From a phage, in sequence record PQ724394.1: 64,000 bases of DNA; one strand, written 5' to 3'. Made by a program: the position numbers and the translations under genes. Below, in pieces: positions 3,962 through 23,825 of this stretch. The notes beneath the pieces are model-generated. The model was not told where the DNA came from. It was given only the letters and a program-made list of their open reading frames with translations, and did not search any database. The first letter of the stretch is position 1. Each line of letters begins with the position of its first letter.

Positions 3962-4633
3962 TTATTTTAAAGTTACAAAAGATGAATTACGTGTTTCACG
4001 TACTAATACTGAGCCATTACGATTGATGTAATAAATCAGACTGAATAATGTTTGGTGGGCAGAAGGGTGTTGGAAATCTTTAGGACGTTCTTTCCAATCA
4101 GGGGTTTCAGAAATCCATTGATAAATCCACCAAGGAACAGTACAGTAACCAGGGTTTTTACCAATAAGCAAAAGATTAGGACTAAAGTTTTCAGGCAAAG
4201 AGAATACAGGTTTTTCCGATTCAATAACCTTGGTTACGGCCTCTTTGAATTTCTCTTCGACAAACGGAACATCTTCTTCAATAATCTCTACCTTAGGAAG
4301 TTCGGCTACCTCAATAACTTCAACTACAGCTTCAGGGGCATCAAATAATAGGGTAGCTTCTTCTTTGGCAGGTTCCGCGCCATCAACAAATTCGTTAGCG
4401 CCTGTAAGTTCGTCGGCGGCATCAATCAAATCAGAAATAGACAAACCTTCGGTTTCTGGAAGTGGTTCATCAGCCAAGGCTTTAAGGCCTTCAGAGATAT
4501 CGATAATCAAATTATCAAACGAACGGGTTTTCTTAAGTTTTAAACCGAATTGTTCGCCGTATTCGATTAACTTAGCTTTAGCTTCTTTTTTATCTTCGAG
4601 TGCACGAAGCTCTTCAATATATTGAGTATCCAT
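3962..4633 (-). CDS. inh: Putative Inh (inhibitor of prohead protease), positional assignment
   Basis: 223 aa acidic protein located between hoc and uvsW as in T4; minus-strand late promoter upstream. Confidence 0.45.
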   Translation of the reverse strand: MDTQYIEELRALEDKKEAKAKLIEYGEQFGLKLKKTRSFDNLIIDISEGLKALADEPLPETEGLSISDLIDAADELTGANEFVDGAEPAKEEATLLFDAPEAVVEVIEVAELPKVEIIEEDVPFVEEKFKEAVTKVIESEKPVFSLPENFSPNLLLIGKNPGYCTVPWWIYQWISETPDWKERPKDFQHPSAHQTLFSLIYYINRNGSVLVRETRNSSFVTLK

Positions 4634-14871: not shown

Positions 14872-16995
14872 CTACATTTTGAATTTATTTGATAAAGAAG
14901 AGATGTCCAAAGATGCAGCAAGGATTTCCATAGCCTCATTACTTTCTGAAACAGATTCTGAAACTAGGAATTCTTTAAACCCATTCATCAATTTAACTTC
15001 ACCGGTTTCCATCAGATGGTCGCCATCGTAAACGGATTCGCTGAGTTCTGAAGGAGATGTCACTGTAGCTTCCATAAGGTATTTGTGAGATACTCTATCA
15101 TTCATAGCAAAAGCCGCTACTTTATCAACCTTCAACAATAACCCGCGCGGAAGGATAATTTCCGCTTCTTCGGCATATTCTGTAAGGTCGCCAGGAGCGA
15201 TAACTTTAACTGCTTCAGCACCTCGAATAACCATACCAATTTCAGCAATCCTGTCTGCAGGGCCTTCAGGTGCAATTGGATTACCAAACTCGTCTTCTTC
15301 CCATTCTACCTCTTCGTCATCGACTTCACCTACGTCAGATGAACTACCACTGGCTAATTTAAACAACTCATCAGCGGAGGATAAAGAACCTTCATCACCG
15401 ACAAAAACTGCTTGGTTGTCGAGGGCCATATAATTTTTACCAAATTCGCCAAAGATATTAGGCTTTAATGAAGCGGACACAAAGTTCTTAAAGTAAAAGG
15501 TTTTGTTATCAATATTATGGCGCAGAATTTTGTATGGTAAATCCTGACCACGATACAAAATAGTACCCTTAGGAAGTTTAATACCCTTGGTAAATGCCGA
15601 GTCTAAATCCTTAATCAATTTAATAGCTGTTGTATTGTTTTCGGATTCAGGTTTACCTAAAAGGAATAAGTTCATAGGAGCATATTCAGCCGCACAATAT
15701 TCAATAATGGCATTACTTTCGTCTTTGGTCAAGCCCTTAGGTTTAATGAGCTCGCCTGAATAAGCATATGCATCGCTAATAGAATCGTTAATCAGTTTAT
15801 AAACGGCTTCCATAGCGAAAGCAATTCGAGATGCTTTCTCTGAAGGAGACCCCTGAAAACGGGCACTCAGGTTATTAACAATTCTCTTAATAATATCCAG
15901 ACTATTGGTAGTATTGATTTGAGAAAGACCGCTTAAAAGTCTATCGACTTCCGTATTAAAAAATGCCATATTATTAGAGTAAATTTCAAACCCTTGTTTA
16001 TCTCTATTAGCATAATTTAGTTTAAATTTACTATCAGTCATTAAAGCGTGCGTGAGAGCAATGGTGTATCTAAAGTTGGCAAGGTCCTCACTCTTAGATT
16101 TAAACTGAGAGGCCTGTCGCATTTTAGTAATAGAACCTTTTTTAAAGTTCTGGCTAATCTGCTCAATACCTTCGTTCTCAGGGCCTTCGGCCGAGTGAAC
16201 AGGGACAGAAGCTTCAAACTCGTTATAAATCTGCAATTCTTTAGGTGATAAAGTTTCGGGTTCGGCAGTAGAATACTGCGCCGCTGCAGCCATACGACGG
16301 GAAATCTTAGTACGAGAAATAACAGCCTTATCGGTACGTTTCTCTTCAACCTGTGCAATAGATGCCGCTACGGCTTCTACTTTACTTACGGCCTGGCCGG
16401 TTTTCTTAGAAACATAAACTTCACCGACTTTAGACTCAACCTTGGTATAAAGGTCTGCATCAATTTCAGGCATACCCTTGATATCTTCGATATTAGAACC
16501 ACGACGTACTAAAAGAACGTAGGTATGTTTACCACTAAACTGGAACATATCATCGACAACTTTAAACTTACCACCGGTACGTGCCATCACCAAACGAGCT
16601 AATACACGCTGAACGGTAGGACCCTTACCTTTCATTTTCTTGGTAGGGAAACGGAACAAAACTGCATCCATTTTAAGTTTGTTTACTTGTTCGTATACGG
16701 TATCGAAAATAGTATTCAGTGTACCAAGTGGGTCAGAACCAAGCCCACCTTTGAGTTCAGCCGGAGCACCCTTGCTAGACAAACTCATTAAAATAATATG
16801 AACGTATTTGTCGCCAGGCTTAACCATTTTAATAGCGTCTCCTTGAGACGCATAAGATACCATACGAGCAACCAGGTTATCATTACCTGGTGCTTGGATA
16901 GAGAAAATCTGTGGGATACCTGAGCCTGGCTTAAGATTTGTTACTGGATAGTTTTTAGCTGAATCACTATCAAAAACTTCGTTTAAATTTTCCAT
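14872..16995 (-). CDS. Alt-like ADP-ribosyltransferase paralogue
   Basis: 707 aa; N-terminal half aligns with the neighbouring Alt; C-terminal ART-like R/S-x-S/E pattern (LYRGQ…FVSASL…AEEAEIILPRG). Confidence 0.7.
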   Translation of the reverse strand: MENLNEVFDSDSAKNYPVTNLKPGSGIPQIFSIQAPGNDNLVARMVSYASQGDAIKMVKPGDKYVHIILMSLSSKGAPAELKGGLGSDPLGTLNTIFDTVYEQVNKLKMDAVLFRFPTKKMKGKGPTVQRVLARLVMARTGGKFKVVDDMFQFSGKHTYVLLVRRGSNIEDIKGMPEIDADLYTKVESKVGEVYVSKKTGQAVSKVEAVAASIAQVEEKRTDKAVISRTKISRRMAAAAQYSTAEPETLSPKELQIYNEFEASVPVHSAEGPENEGIEQISQNFKKGSITKMRQASQFKSKSEDLANFRYTIALTHALMTDSKFKLNYANRDKQGFEIYSNNMAFFNTEVDRLLSGLSQINTTNSLDIIKRIVNNLSARFQGSPSEKASRIAFAMEAVYKLINDSISDAYAYSGELIKPKGLTKDESNAIIEYCAAEYAPMNLFLLGKPESENNTTAIKLIKDLDSAFTKGIKLPKGTILYRGQDLPYKILRHNIDNKTFYFKNFVSASLKPNIFGEFGKNYMALDNQAVFVGDEGSLSSADELFKLASGSSSDVGEVDDEEVEWEEDEFGNPIAPEGPADRIAEIGMVIRGAEAVKVIAPGDLTEYAEEAEIILPRGLLLKVDKVAAFAMNDRVSHKYLMEATVTSPSELSESVYDGDHLMETGEVKLMNGFKEFLVSESVSESNEAMEILAASLDISSLSNKFKM

Positions 16996-16998
16996 TAT

Positions 16999-19083
16999 TT
17001 ACCCTTGGATGAATTTTTCTGGTATGTCATAGAGGTCTATGCATGAAGCCAAAAGTGGCAGTACGTCAAACCGTGTAGATTTAACAAATGAATCAAAAGA
17101 TACAGGGCTTTCGGAAGTATCGAAGTCATCTTGGTATACAACCAATTCACCAGTTTCCATTAGTACGTCACCATCATACACCACAGATTCTTGAAGCTCA
17201 TCTGTGGTCATAACTTCGGCTTGAACGAGTTTTGTATTACTAGATGTTGTTCCGTCATTATTAGAGGCATCGGTTATTTTATTAACTTTGACCATCAATC
17301 CACGCGGTAGAATAACTTCAGCTTCTGTTGCTATTCCGAGACTTCCTGGATATACAACATTAACTTTATGGGCTCCATCAATTGCCCATCCTATTTGAAC
17401 TTTAACGTAATCAGGGTTTTCTTTATACGCTCTTATTTCATTAGGATTAATGGTTATTCCTTCTTCATTTTTATCGACTGTCAATTCATTGCGAACTTCC
17501 GGTTCTAAAAGACCGACACCCGCGTGTGTAACACCAAAACGACCAAAAATGATAGGAGTCAGTGAAGTAGATACAAAATTTCTAAAATAAAATACCTTAT
17601 TTTTAACTAGTGCTTCGTATATAGGAGCAGTCATACTTTGAGCACGATAAACTGTAATGCCTTCTGGTATACGGTCACCATTTTCAAAAGCTGAATCAAG
17701 ATTATTAACAGCAGATTCAATAGACCTTTCATTCATTACATCATAGTTCTGAGGATTATAACGTCCTAAAAGAAGATTATTGATGTCGGTATAACCTGAG
17801 CCGCAGTATTCTCTGATGCCGCGCTTTTGTGATGGGGTGTATTTAGAACCATCGCGAGCAATAGTAATATCGACCATAATACCACCGCCTACACCAGCAA
17901 AACTATATACACGTTTTTTAATGAACTTGGTCTTGGCTGCTTTCCACTTGGACTCGGTTAATTCATTCCAGACGTCGTCAGGCTGACCTTTACGAGTTTT
18001 GTTATGTATAGCCAGCCATTCGCCTTTATATTCTTCAAAAACTGTATTAATAACAGAGGCATACTTTTCTAGAGCTTTAACAGATGTCAAAGGTTCGTTT
18101 TTGATGGCTGTAAGAATTCTCTCTTTAATTTTCTCTTGGATTTCACCTATACCGTGAAGAGGAAACATTTTATATTCATAATGCAACTCTTCAGCAGTGC
18201 CTTCAGCTACTATATTAGCAACTTTATTTTTAGCCGCAGGAGAATTGTTATTGGTGACCATTTCCTGTGCCTCAGGGATTAATGGAGCTGTTGCAGGTTT
18301 ATTAAAATCTGCTGCAGTAGCTTCATATTTCTTAAACAGTTCACTTTCATTACGATAAGATTCTAAAGACTGACTTGCTGCAATAGCGCGACGAGAAATC
18401 TTAGTCTTGGTTATAACCATTTTATCAGTGCGACGTTCTTCAACTTTAGCAATACTGCCGGCAATAGCAGTTTCTTTAGTAACCTGCACACCTTCTTTTT
18501 TAGAAATATAAACTTCACCAACATCAGAATCTACCTTAGTATATAATTCGGCATTAATTCCTGGCATACCTTTGATATCTTCAATATCAGCTTGTTTACG
18601 AACTACTAGGATATAAGTATGTTTACCGGTAAATTGGTACATGGCTGGAACTACTTTAAAACGTCCACCGGTTTTCTGTGCTACCAAACGTTGGATAATC
18701 CGTTGGACGATAGGTCCTTGTCCTTTCATTTTCTTGGTTGGAAAACGGAACATCACAGCATCCATACGAAGCTTTTTAACTTGTTCGAATACTACGTCGA
18801 AAATGGTATTAATAGCATCAATAGGAGTAGGGCCTAAGCCGCCTTTAAGTTCGGCTGGAGAACCTTTAGCTGAAAGGCTCATAAGGATGACGTGGGCGTA
18901 TTTATCACCTAATTTAACCTGTTTAATAGCATCGCCTTCAGAGGCATAAGATACCATACGGGCCACTAATTGGGATTCGGCGTCGCCAATCTTCCAAATC
19001 TGCGGTACTTTAAGTTTTGGGTTTAAGTTTACAGTAGGCAGGGTGCCTTCAGACTCAAACACTTCATTTAATTGTTCGGTCAT
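16999..19083 (-). CDS. alt: Alt ADP-ribosyltransferase (packaged internal head protein in T4)
   Basis: 694 aa; ART-like signature VYRAQ…FVSTSL…ATEAEVILPRG; position immediately upstream of gene 30 region as in T4. Confidence 0.8.
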   Translation of the reverse strand: MTEQLNEVFESEGTLPTVNLNPKLKVPQIWKIGDAESQLVARMVSYASEGDAIKQVKLGDKYAHVILMSLSAKGSPAELKGGLGPTPIDAINTIFDVVFEQVKKLRMDAVMFRFPTKKMKGQGPIVQRIIQRLVAQKTGGRFKVVPAMYQFTGKHTYILVVRKQADIEDIKGMPGINAELYTKVDSDVGEVYISKKEGVQVTKETAIAGSIAKVEERRTDKMVITKTKISRRAIAASQSLESYRNESELFKKYEATAADFNKPATAPLIPEAQEMVTNNNSPAAKNKVANIVAEGTAEELHYEYKMFPLHGIGEIQEKIKERILTAIKNEPLTSVKALEKYASVINTVFEEYKGEWLAIHNKTRKGQPDDVWNELTESKWKAAKTKFIKKRVYSFAGVGGGIMVDITIARDGSKYTPSQKRGIREYCGSGYTDINNLLLGRYNPQNYDVMNERSIESAVNNLDSAFENGDRIPEGITVYRAQSMTAPIYEALVKNKVFYFRNFVSTSLTPIIFGRFGVTHAGVGLLEPEVRNELTVDKNEEGITINPNEIRAYKENPDYVKVQIGWAIDGAHKVNVVYPGSLGIATEAEVILPRGLMVKVNKITDASNNDGTTSSNTKLVQAEVMTTDELQESVVYDGDVLMETGELVVYQDDFDTSESPVSFDSFVKSTRFDVLPLLASCIDLYDIPEKFIQG

Positions 19084-19305: not shown

Positions 19306-20811
19306 TTATAGTCCAGTTTGAGACCAATCACCAAATACATCTTCAAATGTATCAGCTTCTGTTTTATCGAAACGCCAACCTTTAATAGTTGGAAGGAAAA
19401 TACCTACAGTATCAGTACGTCCTTTAGAATGAACCCAACCATTACATTCACAGTCAGCAATACGTCCAATCAACTTACCTTCACGGGCTTGTTTCATAAG
19501 AAGTTCACGGTCTAAATCAGGACGGTTTTCTAATGGGATTAATACCTTTTTACCGGATTTATCTTTCTTATGGGTGGTATCTTTAAAACCGGAACCACAG
19601 TCAGTTGTAATACGACGGCACCGTGATACTAACTCAATACCACCAATCTTGTTAGGGTCTTTAGAGTGTTCATAATAACCTACTACTTCTAAAGCAATAT
19701 CGATTACTTCTTTGAACTTTATAAGATTCTTAGAACGGCGGTTCTCCCAGTAGGAGTCCATGTTCTTAAGGATAATACCTTCCAAGCGTTTGCCGATATA
19801 TTTCTTATAAACTGCTTTAGCTTCGTCCAGGTTATTAACCCACTGCGTTTCGATAGGCTCGACACGTGTAAAACCTTCAGCCATTTGTACTAATGCCGCT
19901 AAACGAACATCGTATTTTTGACCTTTAATTTTGCCTTCAGAATAAACTTCATCCAATGGAACATAGTCCCACGCCTGTAATACCATGCCATCAGCTTCAG
20001 CTGGAGTAATAGTTCCTTGAAGAGCCTTGTTAGCCAAGCCATTTGACGTAGAACGATCGGCTACGGTTTGGAACTCCTTAGCCTTACTTAATTCAGGAAG
20101 TTCTTCATCAAACATACTAAACAAATCATTAGATGCTTTAGGTTCTACTTTAGGTGTATGGTAAACTAATTCACCATCAATCATAACACCATTAGGATGA
20201 CGCTGACGAGCTTCTTCGGTCATTTTAATAAGTTCGGCCGCAAGCTTAGTAAGCCCTTGATATTCGTTCCCACCACGAGTAAGGAATGTTACCCCATCGT
20301 TACGAACTTCAGCAAAACAACGGGCACCGTCAGCTTTTAATTGGGCGAACGCTGGCCATTTAATATTTTTCTTAATCAGGGCTTCGTCATAAGAACTAGC
20401 CAACATTTGAGGTTGTTCAGGGATTAAACCTTTCCAAACCTTGTTAGCAATAGAAATCGATGCACCACATTCAAGGTCACGCATCATTACTCGACGTAAT
20501 ACCTCAGCGTCAGGACCCTTAGCATCGGCAATAATTTGGGCAAGCTCTTCAATAGCCGCATTACCTGTAATCTTACGGGTGGCTAATGTGAACTCAGCGA
20601 AATCAAGAAGGTCTTCAAGTGTAATCATACCAAAGGATTGAGACGTAAATCCAGGTTCAGGCCACTTTTTAATACCGTAGTTTAAACGACGGGTATAAGC
20701 CATACGATATACACGTTTCAGAAGCTCGTTATCCTTTTCACGAGCAATAATAGCTTCTTTAGCTTTAGTAGAATCAATAGAAGCAATTTCGTTTAAAATA
20801 TCTAAAATCAT
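19306..20811 (-). CDS. 30: ATP-dependent DNA ligase gp30
   Basis: 501 aa; adenylation motif KADGAR (KxDGxR) with the catalytic lysine; T4 gp30 is 487 aa. Confidence 0.9.
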   Translation of the reverse strand: MILDILNEIASIDSTKAKEAIIAREKDNELLKRVYRMAYTRRLNYGIKKWPEPGFTSQSFGMITLEDLLDFAEFTLATRKITGNAAIEELAQIIADAKGPDAEVLRRVMMRDLECGASISIANKVWKGLIPEQPQMLASSYDEALIKKNIKWPAFAQLKADGARCFAEVRNDGVTFLTRGGNEYQGLTKLAAELIKMTEEARQRHPNGVMIDGELVYHTPKVEPKASNDLFSMFDEELPELSKAKEFQTVADRSTSNGLANKALQGTITPAEADGMVLQAWDYVPLDEVYSEGKIKGQKYDVRLAALVQMAEGFTRVEPIETQWVNNLDEAKAVYKKYIGKRLEGIILKNMDSYWENRRSKNLIKFKEVIDIALEVVGYYEHSKDPNKIGGIELVSRCRRITTDCGSGFKDTTHKKDKSGKKVLIPLENRPDLDRELLMKQAREGKLIGRIADCECNGWVHSKGRTDTVGIFLPTIKGWRFDKTEADTFEDVFGDWSQTGL

Positions 20812-21131
20812 TTTACCGTCCTTACAGTTTGTGTACTTCTATTATAAGCTACTTCATCTAAAAGCTCATTTAAAGTTTTGTGATACGATATAATACGCTT
20901 ATCTTTAATATCATATTCAGTAACATACATAAATCCACGCCGAACACATTGGATAAAGATATCTTCATCTTTGGCTTGGAAATATACAGGGTTCAATCGA
21001 AGGAATTGTCTAACGTTTCCATAATCATGGGATTTAGGGATTCCATCAGTAATAGTATGAACAACAAACATATTAACCTCGTGCAATCCATTCAACGGCT
21101 GCATTATTACGAAGGGATTCGATTGCTGCAA
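20808..21131 (-). CDS. Hypothetical early protein (30.1-like position; start uncertain)
   Basis: 107 aa ORF overlapping the upstream gene end. Confidence 0.4.
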   Translation of the reverse strand: MQQSNPFVIMQPLNGLHEVNMFVVHTITDGIPKSHDYGNVRQFLRLNPVYFQAKDEDIFIQCVRRGFMYVTEYDIKDKRIISYHKTLNELLDEVAYNRSTQTVRTVK

Positions 21132-21711
21132 TATCGTCCCATGAATTAACCTTTACGGCTAAATTAGGTTTAAAGTCGCGTTCACCACGGGCTAACCAAT
21201 AAACTTGGATATCCATGAGAATATTAGATGCAGCATCACAGTGGTGAGCCAAATCGTCAACATAAAACTTAATGCGTTTACCGTATGTATTTTTAGCTCT
21301 TATGAACAGGTCTTCTTTTGATTCTGAATGACCACACATCAGAATCTCCTTGAATGCACCAGGGAACAAAGCATTCAAATTGAATTGTCTATTCAGCAGA
21401 GCATCAATTGAGTCGCCTAGCGCAGTCACGGCTACAAAATCGAAGTCTTTTTTGAGCTTGTTGATGTGTTTTAATGCATCCATGTAAGGGGACAGATAAC
21501 GAATAAAATCTGACTGGTTATATTTCTCGATTAAACGTGCGCCTAATTCGTCGTCACAATTAAACAGTTCGCCTGGAGATAAGAAACGTTCGTCCTGAAT
21601 CATATTCAAAATATGTTCTAAAGGCAAATTATATTTCTGTGCGAAATAAGGCAAGCCGGACTGCCAACTTAAACATACTCCATCGATATCTGTTAAGATA
21701 ACTGGTTTCAT
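21073..21711 (-). CDS. HAD-superfamily hydrolase-like protein
   Basis: N-terminal DIDGV motif (HAD motif I DxDx[TV]). Confidence 0.5.
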   Translation of the reverse strand: MKPVILTDIDGVCLSWQSGLPYFAQKYNLPLEHILNMIQDERFLSPGELFNCDDELGARLIEKYNQSDFIRYLSPYMDALKHINKLKKDFDFVAVTALGDSIDALLNRQFNLNALFPGAFKEILMCGHSESKEDLFIRAKNTYGKRIKFYVDDLAHHCDAASNILMDIQVYWLARGERDFKPNLAVKVNSWDDIAAIESLRNNAAVEWIARG

Positions 21712-22175
21712 AATAAATCTCTCAATTTGTTTAGGATGTCGATAAACTCTTTTTCAGTTAGTATTGTATCACATTCTTTGAGGTGGCTTGCCATTGAATG
21801 CTTTAAAACCTTACCTTTAGTGGCTTGTAAAGCTTCTCGGAATCCTTTGTTCTGGAGTGCTGCTTCAAAATACGCACTTTCGTAAAGCTCTTTCCATGCT
21901 TCGGAATATCTTGAAAACGGGGTTCCAAGCCAGAACAACGTGCCACGGTCCTGAGCTCTAGCATAAGCTCGTCCAGCTTTTTGTGCGTCTAACCCGGACA
22001 TCCTAAATATACGTCTTTGTTGTTCAACACTTTTCACCTTACATCCTTGGAGGAATCCTTCGAGTCCACCAAATTGGATACCGTCCATAACGAAAGGCCA
22101 TTTAGCAAAGTTACTTAATGCGCATGATGGCCACGGAAAGTTACTTCTAATTTCTAACTCAGACATCTTTGACAC
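21708..22175 (-). CDS. YbiA/NADAR (DUF1768)-like protein
   Basis: SNFAKWPFVMDGIQFGGLEGFLQGCK resembles the YbiA segment FSNFAAWPIKVDGKTWPTSEHYFQAQK. Confidence 0.55.
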   Translation of the reverse strand: MSKMSELEIRSNFPWPSCALSNFAKWPFVMDGIQFGGLEGFLQGCKVKSVEQQRRIFRMSGLDAQKAGRAYARAQDRGTLFWLGTPFSRYSEAWKELYESAYFEAALQNKGFREALQATKGKVLKHSMASHLKECDTILTEKEFIDILNKLRDLL

Positions 22176-22371
22176 TTATAATCTTGGTAGCGTACCACAT
22201 ACCATGGTCCGGTAATCTGGATTTAATTGACCGCCCACGATATGTTTTTCGCATTATAACAGTCTTAATAACATCTTCATCACAAGCATATGGCGGCGAT
22301 AAGTCGATAACACGATAAGTCACTTCAACCATTTCTAGGCCAAACAGCTTTTTAAGCCATTTCTTAACCAT
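22159..22371 (-). CDS. Hypothetical early protein
   Basis: 70 aa ORF in tightly packed early gene array. Confidence 0.35.
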   Translation of the reverse strand: MVKKWLKKLFGLEMVEVTYRVIDLSPPYACDEDVIKTVIMRKTYRGRSIKSRLPDHGMWYATKIISVKDV

Positions 22372-22372
22372 A

Positions 22373-22567
22373 TTATCCTCGCTTCAAACATTTGATTACA
22401 GATAATTCAGAACCCATACGAACGTCTTCAGTTCCATCGACCCACAGGACGGTGTAGGCTTCTTTAATAGTAGCATTACCTAATTTAAAACCAGGCAAGA
22501 CCTTAGAAATCATTCCAGGAATACCTACACCTTTTAACTGGACGGTTTGTGATAAGAATAGTTGCAT
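22373..22567 (-). CDS. Hypothetical early protein
   Basis: 64 aa ORF, stop/start abutting neighbours. Confidence 0.35.
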   Translation of the reverse strand: MQLFLSQTVQLKGVGIPGMISKVLPGFKLGNATIKEAYTVLWVDGTEDVRMGSELSVIKCLKRG

Positions 22568-22854
22568 TAGAACCTCATCTGAAATCCATGTGATTTAACA
22601 TTACCGCCGTAGATGTCAGAAGTATTGACTTCGCGGGCAGCGCTAGGGTCGATGTTAATATCATGGTTGAGCTTAGTGATTGCTAGGGTGTCACGACCAT
22701 TGACTGTACGGAATTCTACTGGACAAACCACATCAGCATAAGCCTTAATGGATTCACGAGTAGGCTGTTTGTCGGCAGGAACATCTTTACCTGCCTTAGA
22801 GAAAACAACTTCACAGAAATTTTTACGAGTATCGAAATAAGTGGTCATAAACAT
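22567..22854 (-). CDS. Hypothetical early protein
   Basis: Start taken at ATG 22854 (MFMTTYF) with SD gagg; the upstream extension would encode a GC hairpin. Confidence 0.4.
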   Translation of the reverse strand: MFMTTYFDTRKNFCEVVFSKAGKDVPADKQPTRESIKAYADVVCPVEFRTVNGRDTLAITKLNHDINIDPSAAREVNTSDIYGGNVKSHGFQMRF

Positions 22855-22869
22855 AATATTTTCCTCAAA

Positions 22870-22885
22870 GGAGGCCGAAGCCTCC
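22870..22885 (-). promoter_or_regulatory. Intercistronic cUUCGg hairpin (ggaggcUUCGgccucc)
   Basis: Perfect 6-bp GC stem with UUCG loop on minus strand just upstream of an SD; identical 16-mer recurs at 61847-61862. Confidence 0.5.
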
Positions 22886-22895
22886 ATTTTTAAGA

Positions 22896-23261
22896 TTAGA
22901 TATCAAATTCATTCAGAACTACATCAAAGATTGCTTCCAGGTGTTCAGGTTTAGCACGGTTGCTCAGGATGTGACGAATCCAGGTTTTAACCAGAAGCTT
23001 ACGATTATCACCGTTCCAGCAAGGATGGGTACCTAAATCACGTTGACGGAAATCATCATCCAAAGCGATTTTAAAAGTAGAACCTTCCATAGTGATTGAA
23101 ACCGTGATACCATTTTCAAAGCGCATATAAACGTAGTTAGGAGTCATGCACTGTTCGATTTCGCACACTGTGCTGTTGTTGTGTTTCCACAGGCAAATAA
23201 CTTCAGAAGAACCAGCAATACCGTTAGAAACATATTTACGTTCGAAGTTGATGTAGTTCAT
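22896..23261 (-). CDS. Hypothetical early protein
   Basis: 121 aa; preceded by early promoter and a 40-nt leader identical to that of the next gene. Confidence 0.45.
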   Translation of the reverse strand: MNYINFERKYVSNGIAGSSEVICLWKHNNSTVCEIEQCMTPNYVYMRFENGITVSITMEGSTFKIALDDDFRQRDLGTHPCWNGDNRKLLVKTWIRHILSNRAKPEHLEAIFDVVLNEFDI

Positions 23262-23302
23262 TTTATTCTCCAGTTTGTTTTCGTATTATTTGGTACAGGT
23301 CT

Positions 23303-23331
23303 ATAATAACACAACCTGTACCAAAGTAAAC
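23303..23331 (-). promoter_or_regulatory. T4-type early promoter embedded in a palindrome
   Basis: Minus strand GTTTAC-N17-TATTAT; inverted repeat ggtacagg/cctgtacc (23294-23321) flanks the -10. Confidence 0.55.
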
Positions 23332-23789: not shown

Positions 23790-23820
23790 TAGAAACAAAA
23801 ATGGGACTCCGAAGAGTCCC
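23790..23820 (-). terminator. Rho-independent terminator (cUUCGg hairpin plus U-run)
   Basis: Minus strand gggacuc-UUCG-gaguccc followed by AUUUUUGUUU. Confidence 0.7.
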
Positions 23821-23825
23821 ATAAC

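Follow-up and report, generated by a model that had tools for sequence, protein, structure and literature searches.

The gene at positions 21708..22166 on the minus strand of phage record PQ724394.1 is, as judged from its sequence, the Dhakavirus (JS98-like) ortholog of T4 gene 30.3 (adfN), and its product very probably acts as an AdfN-type guanine DNA ADP-ribosylglycohydrolase that counters the DarTG1 defence system. The window analysed was the whole 64,000-nucleotide stretch of this phage DNA, and all positions refer to it. The gp30.3 family, its fold, its activity and its biological role have all been published, and this gene is a new sequence variant. The initial annotation, which described the product as a YbiA/NADAR-like protein, missed its identity as the already characterised T4 gene 30.3.

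A mechanically called open reading frame was found at 21708..22175 on the minus strand, encoding 155 aa from a GTG start and containing the segment SNFAKWPFVMDGIQFGGLEGFLQGCK that the initial annotation had quoted, so that both the frame and the segment are real. An ATG is located at 22166, nine bases downstream of the GTG (22175), and translation from it gives a 152-aa product. The homologues in JS98, T4 and RB69 are all annotated from the equivalent ATG, with a length of 152 aa, but 137 aa in RB69. Because these orthologs begin there, and because the numbering of residues E36 and K43 then equals the published T4 numbering, the ATG at 22166 is likely to be the true start of gene 30.3 in this phage. 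The GTG start was rejected in favour of this ATG on the basis of the JS98, T4 and RB69 annotations, and the gene was taken as 21708..22166. The features of the locus, with the evidence used for each in brackets, are:

21073..21711, minus strand: HAD-like gene 30.2 (212 aa), with a start codon that overlaps the stop of adfN (ATGA) (phrog_420, 2.4e-70).
21708..22166, minus strand: adfN (gene 30.3), coding for 152 aa and ending in TGA; a core-only phage NADAR domain.
21711..21755, minus strand: C-terminal alpha-helix, residues 138-152, intact (model, RB69 comparison).
21798..21800, minus strand: H123 codon CAT, the mark of phage gp30.3-type NADARs (alignment, model, literature).
22038..22040, minus strand: K43 codon AAG, predicted catalytic/ADP-ribose-binding Lys (alignment, YbiA alignment).
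22059..22061, minus strand: E36 codon GAA, predicted catalytic Glu contacting the distal ribose (65-sequence alignment, YbiA alignment).
22159..22371, minus strand: gene 30.4 (70 aa), with a stop codon overlapping the start of adfN (ATGTCTGA) (phrog_2042, 4.3e-25).
22167..22175, minus strand: the three extra codons GTG-TCA-AAG of the mechanical frame, 5' of the ATG, probably untranslated (ortholog starts, residue numbering).

Orthology to T4 gp30.3 was apparent at the levels of family, protein, DNA and gene order. The Pfam family PF08010 (Phage_30_3, 'Bacteriophage protein GP30.3') scored the protein at 216.5 bits (E 1.4e-64; cut-off 36), with profile positions 2-138 of 138 covered by residues 15-153 in the GTG numbering, and PHROGs assigned it to phrog_652, which is annotated as unknown function. 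The alignment with T4 gp30.3 was gapless over 152/152 aa, with 128/152 residues identical (84%, E 5e-99); the 24 residues that differ are mostly at 55-67 and 128-151. Protein identity was 99% to JS98 gp30.3 and 84% to the truncated RB69 gp30.3 over the 137 residues that are shared. At the DNA level, the region 20800-23300 (genes 30.1 to 30.7) was 95.6% identical to Escherichia phage JS98 (Straboviridae, Tevenvirinae, Dhakavirus), so the window phage differs in genus from T4, which is a Tequatrovirus. Members of the gp30.3 family were detected by tblastn in 1511 phage records, including Escherichia, Klebsiella, Shigella, Aeromonas, Acinetobacter, Vibrio and other T4-like phages. A protein database search returned 183 relatives, and PF08010 was present in every one among the matches listed (120 of 183).

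The genes of the block are arranged in the window as altB, altA, alt.1, 30 (DNA ligase), 30.1, 30.2, 30.3, 30.4, as they are in JS98, and the order alt, alt.1, 30, 30.1, 30.2, 30.3, 30.4 is common to the window, T4, RB69 and JS98. The gene had been described as lying in an early gene array next to DNA ligase; it does belong to the ligase block, but it does not adjoin the ligase directly, as genes 30.1 and 30.2 are located between the two. As in T4, the gene overlaps its neighbours 30.2 and 30.4 within the same 30.x block. In more distant T4-like phages the neighbourhood of the homolog differs: in Aeromonas phage 50AhydR13PP (locus 2122-2571) it adjoins endonuclease and ribonucleotide reductase genes, and in Vibrio phage 6E35-1b (locus 4001-4456) it is upstream of SbcCD-like (gp46/47) genes. 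These differences suggest that gp30.3 moves independently of the ligase-30.x block.

Some further observations were made on the genes surrounding adfN. Gene 30.1 was called mechanically at 20808-21131 (minus strand) from a TTG start, with 107 aa and a 59-base overlap with the end of gene 30.2. The JS98 gene is annotated with 87 aa from an internal ATG (at about 21071 in the window), and the shorter form is more likely because of this annotation and because the Pfam DUF3045 match begins at residue 21. Gene 30.4 (22159-22371, minus strand) is a local divergence hot spot, clearest at 22200-22300; its DNA identity to JS98 falls to 58% in one 100-base block, with flanks at 97-100%. The gp30.4 protein (phrog_2042, of unknown function) was 56% identical to JS98 and 30% identical to T4 over the aligning part, and its sequence is suggestive of a small early gene that was swapped or evolves fast. 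The counterpart of the T4 internal out-of-frame gene 30.3' (76 aa) is at 21803-21964 (minus strand), in the +1 frame inside adfN. In both the window and JS98 this frame has a Val/Met and then a stop (..LNNKDVYLGCPG followed by the stop codon) where T4 reads through, leaving a 53-aa remnant open, and the T4 ATG of 30.3' is missing in the window. With the frame stopped and the ATG missing, 30.3' lacks conservation and is unlikely to be a real gene.

The relationship to the NADAR/YbiA superfamily was not significant from motif resemblance alone. When the protein alone was searched against the PDB with phmmer, YbiA came up at E = 1, and the single sequence had no match to Pfam NADAR (PF08719) at E <= 1. 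With the family as the query, the placement in NADAR/YbiA that had been proposed from the motif was borne out. Twenty-one of the 65 gp30.3 family members matched PF08719 (best E 1.5e-07), the family profile matched YbiA and no other entry in the PDB (E = 0.031), and hhalign aligned the family profile to E. coli K-12 YbiA over 105 columns with 92% probability (E 5.8e-07). The YbiA string FSNFAAWPIKVDGKTWPTSEHYFQAQK used in the original comparison agrees with the actual sequence of PDB 2b3w at residues 29-55. An AlphaFold2 model built from 65 sequences had a mean pLDDT of 95.3 and a pTM of 0.89, with no residue below pLDDT 70, and it displayed the YbiA-like alpha+beta fold of the NADAR superfamily. 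The 65-sequence family alignment used for both the model and the conservation analysis was built without the T4 row. Since the single-sequence searches were too weak, superfamily membership rests on the profile and fold evidence, which supports the assignment of the protein to the gp30.3 branch of the NADAR superfamily.

Under the ATG numbering, the Glu and Lys of the NADAR motif are E36 and K43; loss of the catalytic residues, which would have counted against the original proposal, was not seen. E36 was invariant in the 65-sequence family alignment and aligned to YbiA E48, and K43 was at least 90% conserved and aligned to YbiA K55. H123 was likewise invariant and directly follows the last modelled strand (residues 120-122). 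The hhalign alignment stops at VLK122 versus YbiA KLV124, and H123 is opposite YbiA E125 by extension. The third NADAR residue is reported to be Glu in YbiA-type, Asp in DarG1-type and His in phage gp30.3-type proteins (PMC11125620, PMC11543638, PMC12945103). The same E36, K43 and H123 are found in T4 gp30.3. In Johannesman et al. 2025 (PMC11825919), T4 AdfN E36A served as a catalytically inactive control in vitro and gave partial rescue only in vivo, and K43A also gave partial rescue only.

The RB69 allele was compared at the C-terminus. It has the same gene context as the window gene, but a one-base insertion shifts the frame so that the last 15 residues are lost, and the +1 frame after the break reads EAEFIDVLNLLRDSL; according to PMC11825919, RB69 is DarTG1-sensitive and the T4 protein truncated in the RB69 manner has reduced activity. 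The window gene is without this frameshift, and the C-terminal helix, which is also present in the T4 protein, was found at residues 138-151 of the model. RB69 thus represents a natural loss-of-function allele within the gp30.3 family, and shortened gp30.3 proteins (89-126 aa) were found among the database relatives listed, which might suggest that the present allele is also decayed and inactive, and kept only by linkage. This is extremely unlikely, since the allele has a full-length frame, keeps E36, K43, H123 and all 17 invariant family positions (as listed in window coordinates), has a complete C-terminal helix and gives a model of high confidence along its whole length, where pLDDT is nowhere below 70.

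The fold and the E/K pocket are common to the window protein and E. coli YbiA (2b3w), a riboflavin-intermediate N-glycosidase, and nucleotide salvage had been offered alongside counter-defence as a role for the gene. A YbiA-type metabolic N-glycosidase or nucleotide salvage enzyme would act on small molecules, either riboflavin-pathway intermediates or soluble ADPr-derived immune signals. This possibility would also be in line with the weak match to TIGR02464, with the weak resemblance of the adjoining gp30.2 to HAD 5'-nucleotidases, and with Iyer et al. 2022, who favoured small-molecule ADPr derivatives as the substrates of phage NADARs. Against it, the last-strand Glu that defines YbiA is His in this protein, and TIGR02464, the riboflavin N-glycosidase model and the sole NCBIfam match, scored 14.1 bits with a cut-off of 73.7. 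Furthermore, ADP-ribosylated DNA is the reported substrate of the T4 ortholog, whose loss gives a DarTG1 phenotype (PMC11825919). The salvage role was thus not upheld, and a small-molecule function as the explanation for this gene has a very slight probability. The narrower assignment as a riboflavin N-glycosidase equivalog of YbiA was rejected on the sub-threshold TIGR02464 score and the replacement of the YbiA-type Glu by His. A further difference seen in the hhalign alignment is a beta-hairpin (residues 76-85) of the window protein for which YbiA has no counterpart.

Assignment as a DarG1 antitoxin (BC4488 NADAR family) was also rejected. The DarG1 NADARs (G. lovleyi 8bat, E. coli C7) have Asp as the third catalytic residue, where the window protein has His. 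DarG1 carries an N-terminal beta-beta-alpha extension forming a positively charged DNA groove, whereas the window protein begins 35 residues before the catalytic Glu and consists of the bare core. In addition, the DarG1 gene adjoins darT1, and the window gene is an orphan, with 30.2 and 30.4 as neighbours and no DarT gene adjoining. T4 AdfN cannot substitute for DarG1 in uninfected cells (PMC11825919). The PADLOC defence models gave no match for gp30.3 or gp30.2; for gp30.3, this is to be expected of a counter-defence gene.

The placement of gp30.3 among the NADARs was bioinformatic, in vitro de-ADP-ribosylation followed in 2023-2024, and the anti-DarTG1 genetics in 2025. NADARs were shown to hydrolyse guanine-ADP-ribose and to serve as the DarT1 antitoxin (Schuller et al. 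2023, PMC11543638), and T4 gp30.3 was reported to strip ADP-ribose from guanosine, and not from thymidine, in DNA in vitro (Toxins 2024, PMC11125620). The same activity on guanosine-ADPr and inactivity on thymidine-ADPr are given for T4 gp30.3 in a 2026 Toxins paper (PMC12945103), in which the phage NADAR is listed as guanine-specific and described as a bare core domain. According to Johannesman et al. 2025 (PMC11825919), the DarTG1 resistance of T2 and T4 mapped to 30.3, which was renamed adfN (anti-DarT factor NADAR). The same paper reports that T4 and T2 deleted for adfN were unable to plaque on DarTG1 hosts and were complemented in trans, and that ectopic adfN rescued RB69, a rescue weakened by E36A, by K43A and by an RB69-like truncation. 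It also reports that purified T4 AdfN freed DarT1-modified DNA of ADP-ribose, and concludes that T-even phages require adfN to resist DarTG1 and that the gene suffices for this. No binding of AdfN to DarT1 was observed in a two-hybrid assay, and AdfN was without effect on DarTG2.

The same literature also describes conditions on the activity of the T4 protein. T4 AdfN failed to neutralise DarT1 in uninfected E. coli and barely rescued T5 and Bas25, as stated in PMC11125620 and PMC11825919; an extra requirement in vivo would follow from these two results, and the latter source describes T4 AdfN as fully working only during T-even infection and suggests that an additional T-even protein is needed. 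Two other orphan phage NADARs that counter DarTG1, AdfN-Bas32 (T5-like) and AdfN-Bas60 (Vequintavirinae), fall on different branches of the NADAR tree from gp30.3 and go back to separate acquisitions, and they neutralise DarT1 without phage infection, which the gp30.3 type does not. The accessible part of the published phage panel makes no mention of Dhakavirus phages.

Enzyme activity and the anti-DarTG1 phenotype are thus established in the literature for the T4 ortholog (and the T2 allele), and we infer that the present allele would be active like the T4 ortholog. The original suggestion that the protein reverses nucleobase ADP-ribosylation as an early counter-defence factor gains support from the DNA activity of this 84%-identical ortholog, as reported in PMC11825919. 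Upon infection of a DarTG1 host, the DarT1 toxin would ADP-ribosylate guanines in the phage DNA and block its replication. AdfN would then cleave the N-glycosidic bond between ADP-ribose and guanine by means of E36, K43 and H123 in the conserved pocket, and the restored, unmodified DNA would allow the phage to replicate. The target of AdfN would be the modified DNA, with no binding of the toxin.

The main job of the protein might instead be the reversal of other ADP-ribosylation and not of DarT1 damage, acting on guanine-ADPr on RNA or on off-target marks left by the ADP-ribosyltransferases (ARTs) of the phage itself. Two Alt paralogs are located just downstream of the gene (14872-16995 and 16999-19083), in the same leftward block. 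Alt ADP-ribosylates proteins on arginine, not guanine, which argues against its marks as the substrate, and the gp30.3 homologs of the Aeromonas, Shewanella and Vibrio phages are located elsewhere, with no annotated alt within 4 kb. Other points are more favourable to this alternative: T4-like NADARs are expressed early together with ARTs (Iyer et al. 2022), removal of G-ADPr from RNA in vitro is reported for every NADAR family (PMC12945103), and T4 AdfN is fully effective only during T-even infection, as mentioned above. However, the defect of the T4 and T2 adfN deletions is DarTG1-specific and complemented in trans (PMC11825919). Other ADP-ribosylation as the main target is therefore considered quite unlikely. 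Undoing the marks of the phage's own ARTs, or RNA de-ADP-ribosylation, is possible as a side activity, which would not explain the DarTG1-specific deletion phenotype.

The two Alt-type ADP-ribosyltransferase paralogs (14872-16995 and 16999-19083, both on the minus strand) are arranged in tandem, as are altB and altA in JS98. The first was 98.6% identical to JS98 AltB and the second only 70.7% identical to JS98 AltA. Between the two paralogs, identity was 65% in the first 240 residues and 34% in the C-terminal part. The identity pattern of the second paralog suggests that the altA copy is a mosaic or a divergent allele.

For the AdfN-type role proposed here, gp30.2 was considered as the T-even partner, with 30.2 and 30.3 forming a two-enzyme unit in which AdfN would release ADP-ribose and gp30.2 might process the product or the DNA end. 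The gp30.2 protein belongs to phrog_420, annotated as unknown function, and has an HAD-type DxDGV motif (DIDGV) at residues 8-12 of its N-terminus (MKPVILTDIDGV). Its other matches were weak, namely Pfam NT5C (E 0.1) and PDB 2jao, a 5'(3')-deoxyribonucleotidase (E 0.19). Its length is 212 aa in the window and JS98, whereas the T4 and RB69 proteins have 278 and about 271 aa. In favour of a partnership, gp30.2 is HAD-like and translationally coupled, with its start overlapping the adfN stop (ATGA), and it adjoins gp30.3 in JS98, T4, RB69, an Acinetobacter Lazarusvirus and a Klebsiella Slopekvirus. No gp30.2 homolog was present within 4 kb of gp30.3 in an Aeromonas Tulanevirus, a Shewanella phage, a Vibrio phage and an Aeromonas Ceceduovirus. 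A strict linkage was rejected, being kept in 5 of the 8 other loci examined and failing in 3; as it fails in distant phages, the linkage of gp30.2 and gp30.3 is not obligatory. The partnership is thus no more than a lead, of low probability.

Early expression of gene 30.3 may be assumed because it lies in the leftward alt-30-31 block and because of the statement of Iyer et al. 2022. A promoter and terminator consensus scan detected 8 promoter-like sites, below the mean of 20.4 in shuffled controls, and gives no dependable indication of timing. A strong terminator-like hairpin was observed at 23801-23822 (minus strand), with a 9-bp stem (ATGGGACTC-TTCG-GAGTCCCAT) followed by a T-run, just after a 53-aa open reading frame that positionally matches gene 30.9. 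Upstream of gene 30.7, at 23303-23330 (minus strand), there is a promoter-like sequence whose -10 is of the extended type (TTTACT-16-TATTAT). These two elements may possibly be the boundaries of a transcription unit carrying genes 30.7-30.3.

The orthology, the fold, the conserved catalytic residues, the intact C-terminal helix and the gene order were all shown by this analysis. It follows for its annotation that the gene should be labelled adfN, NADAR-type DNA ADP-ribosylglycohydrolase, anti-DarTG1 factor, and not 'hypothetical protein'. A counter-defence enzyme was in this case correctly spotted, without tools, from a 26-residue motif. Given an intact adfN allele, this Dhakavirus would be expected to resist DarTG1-type defence.
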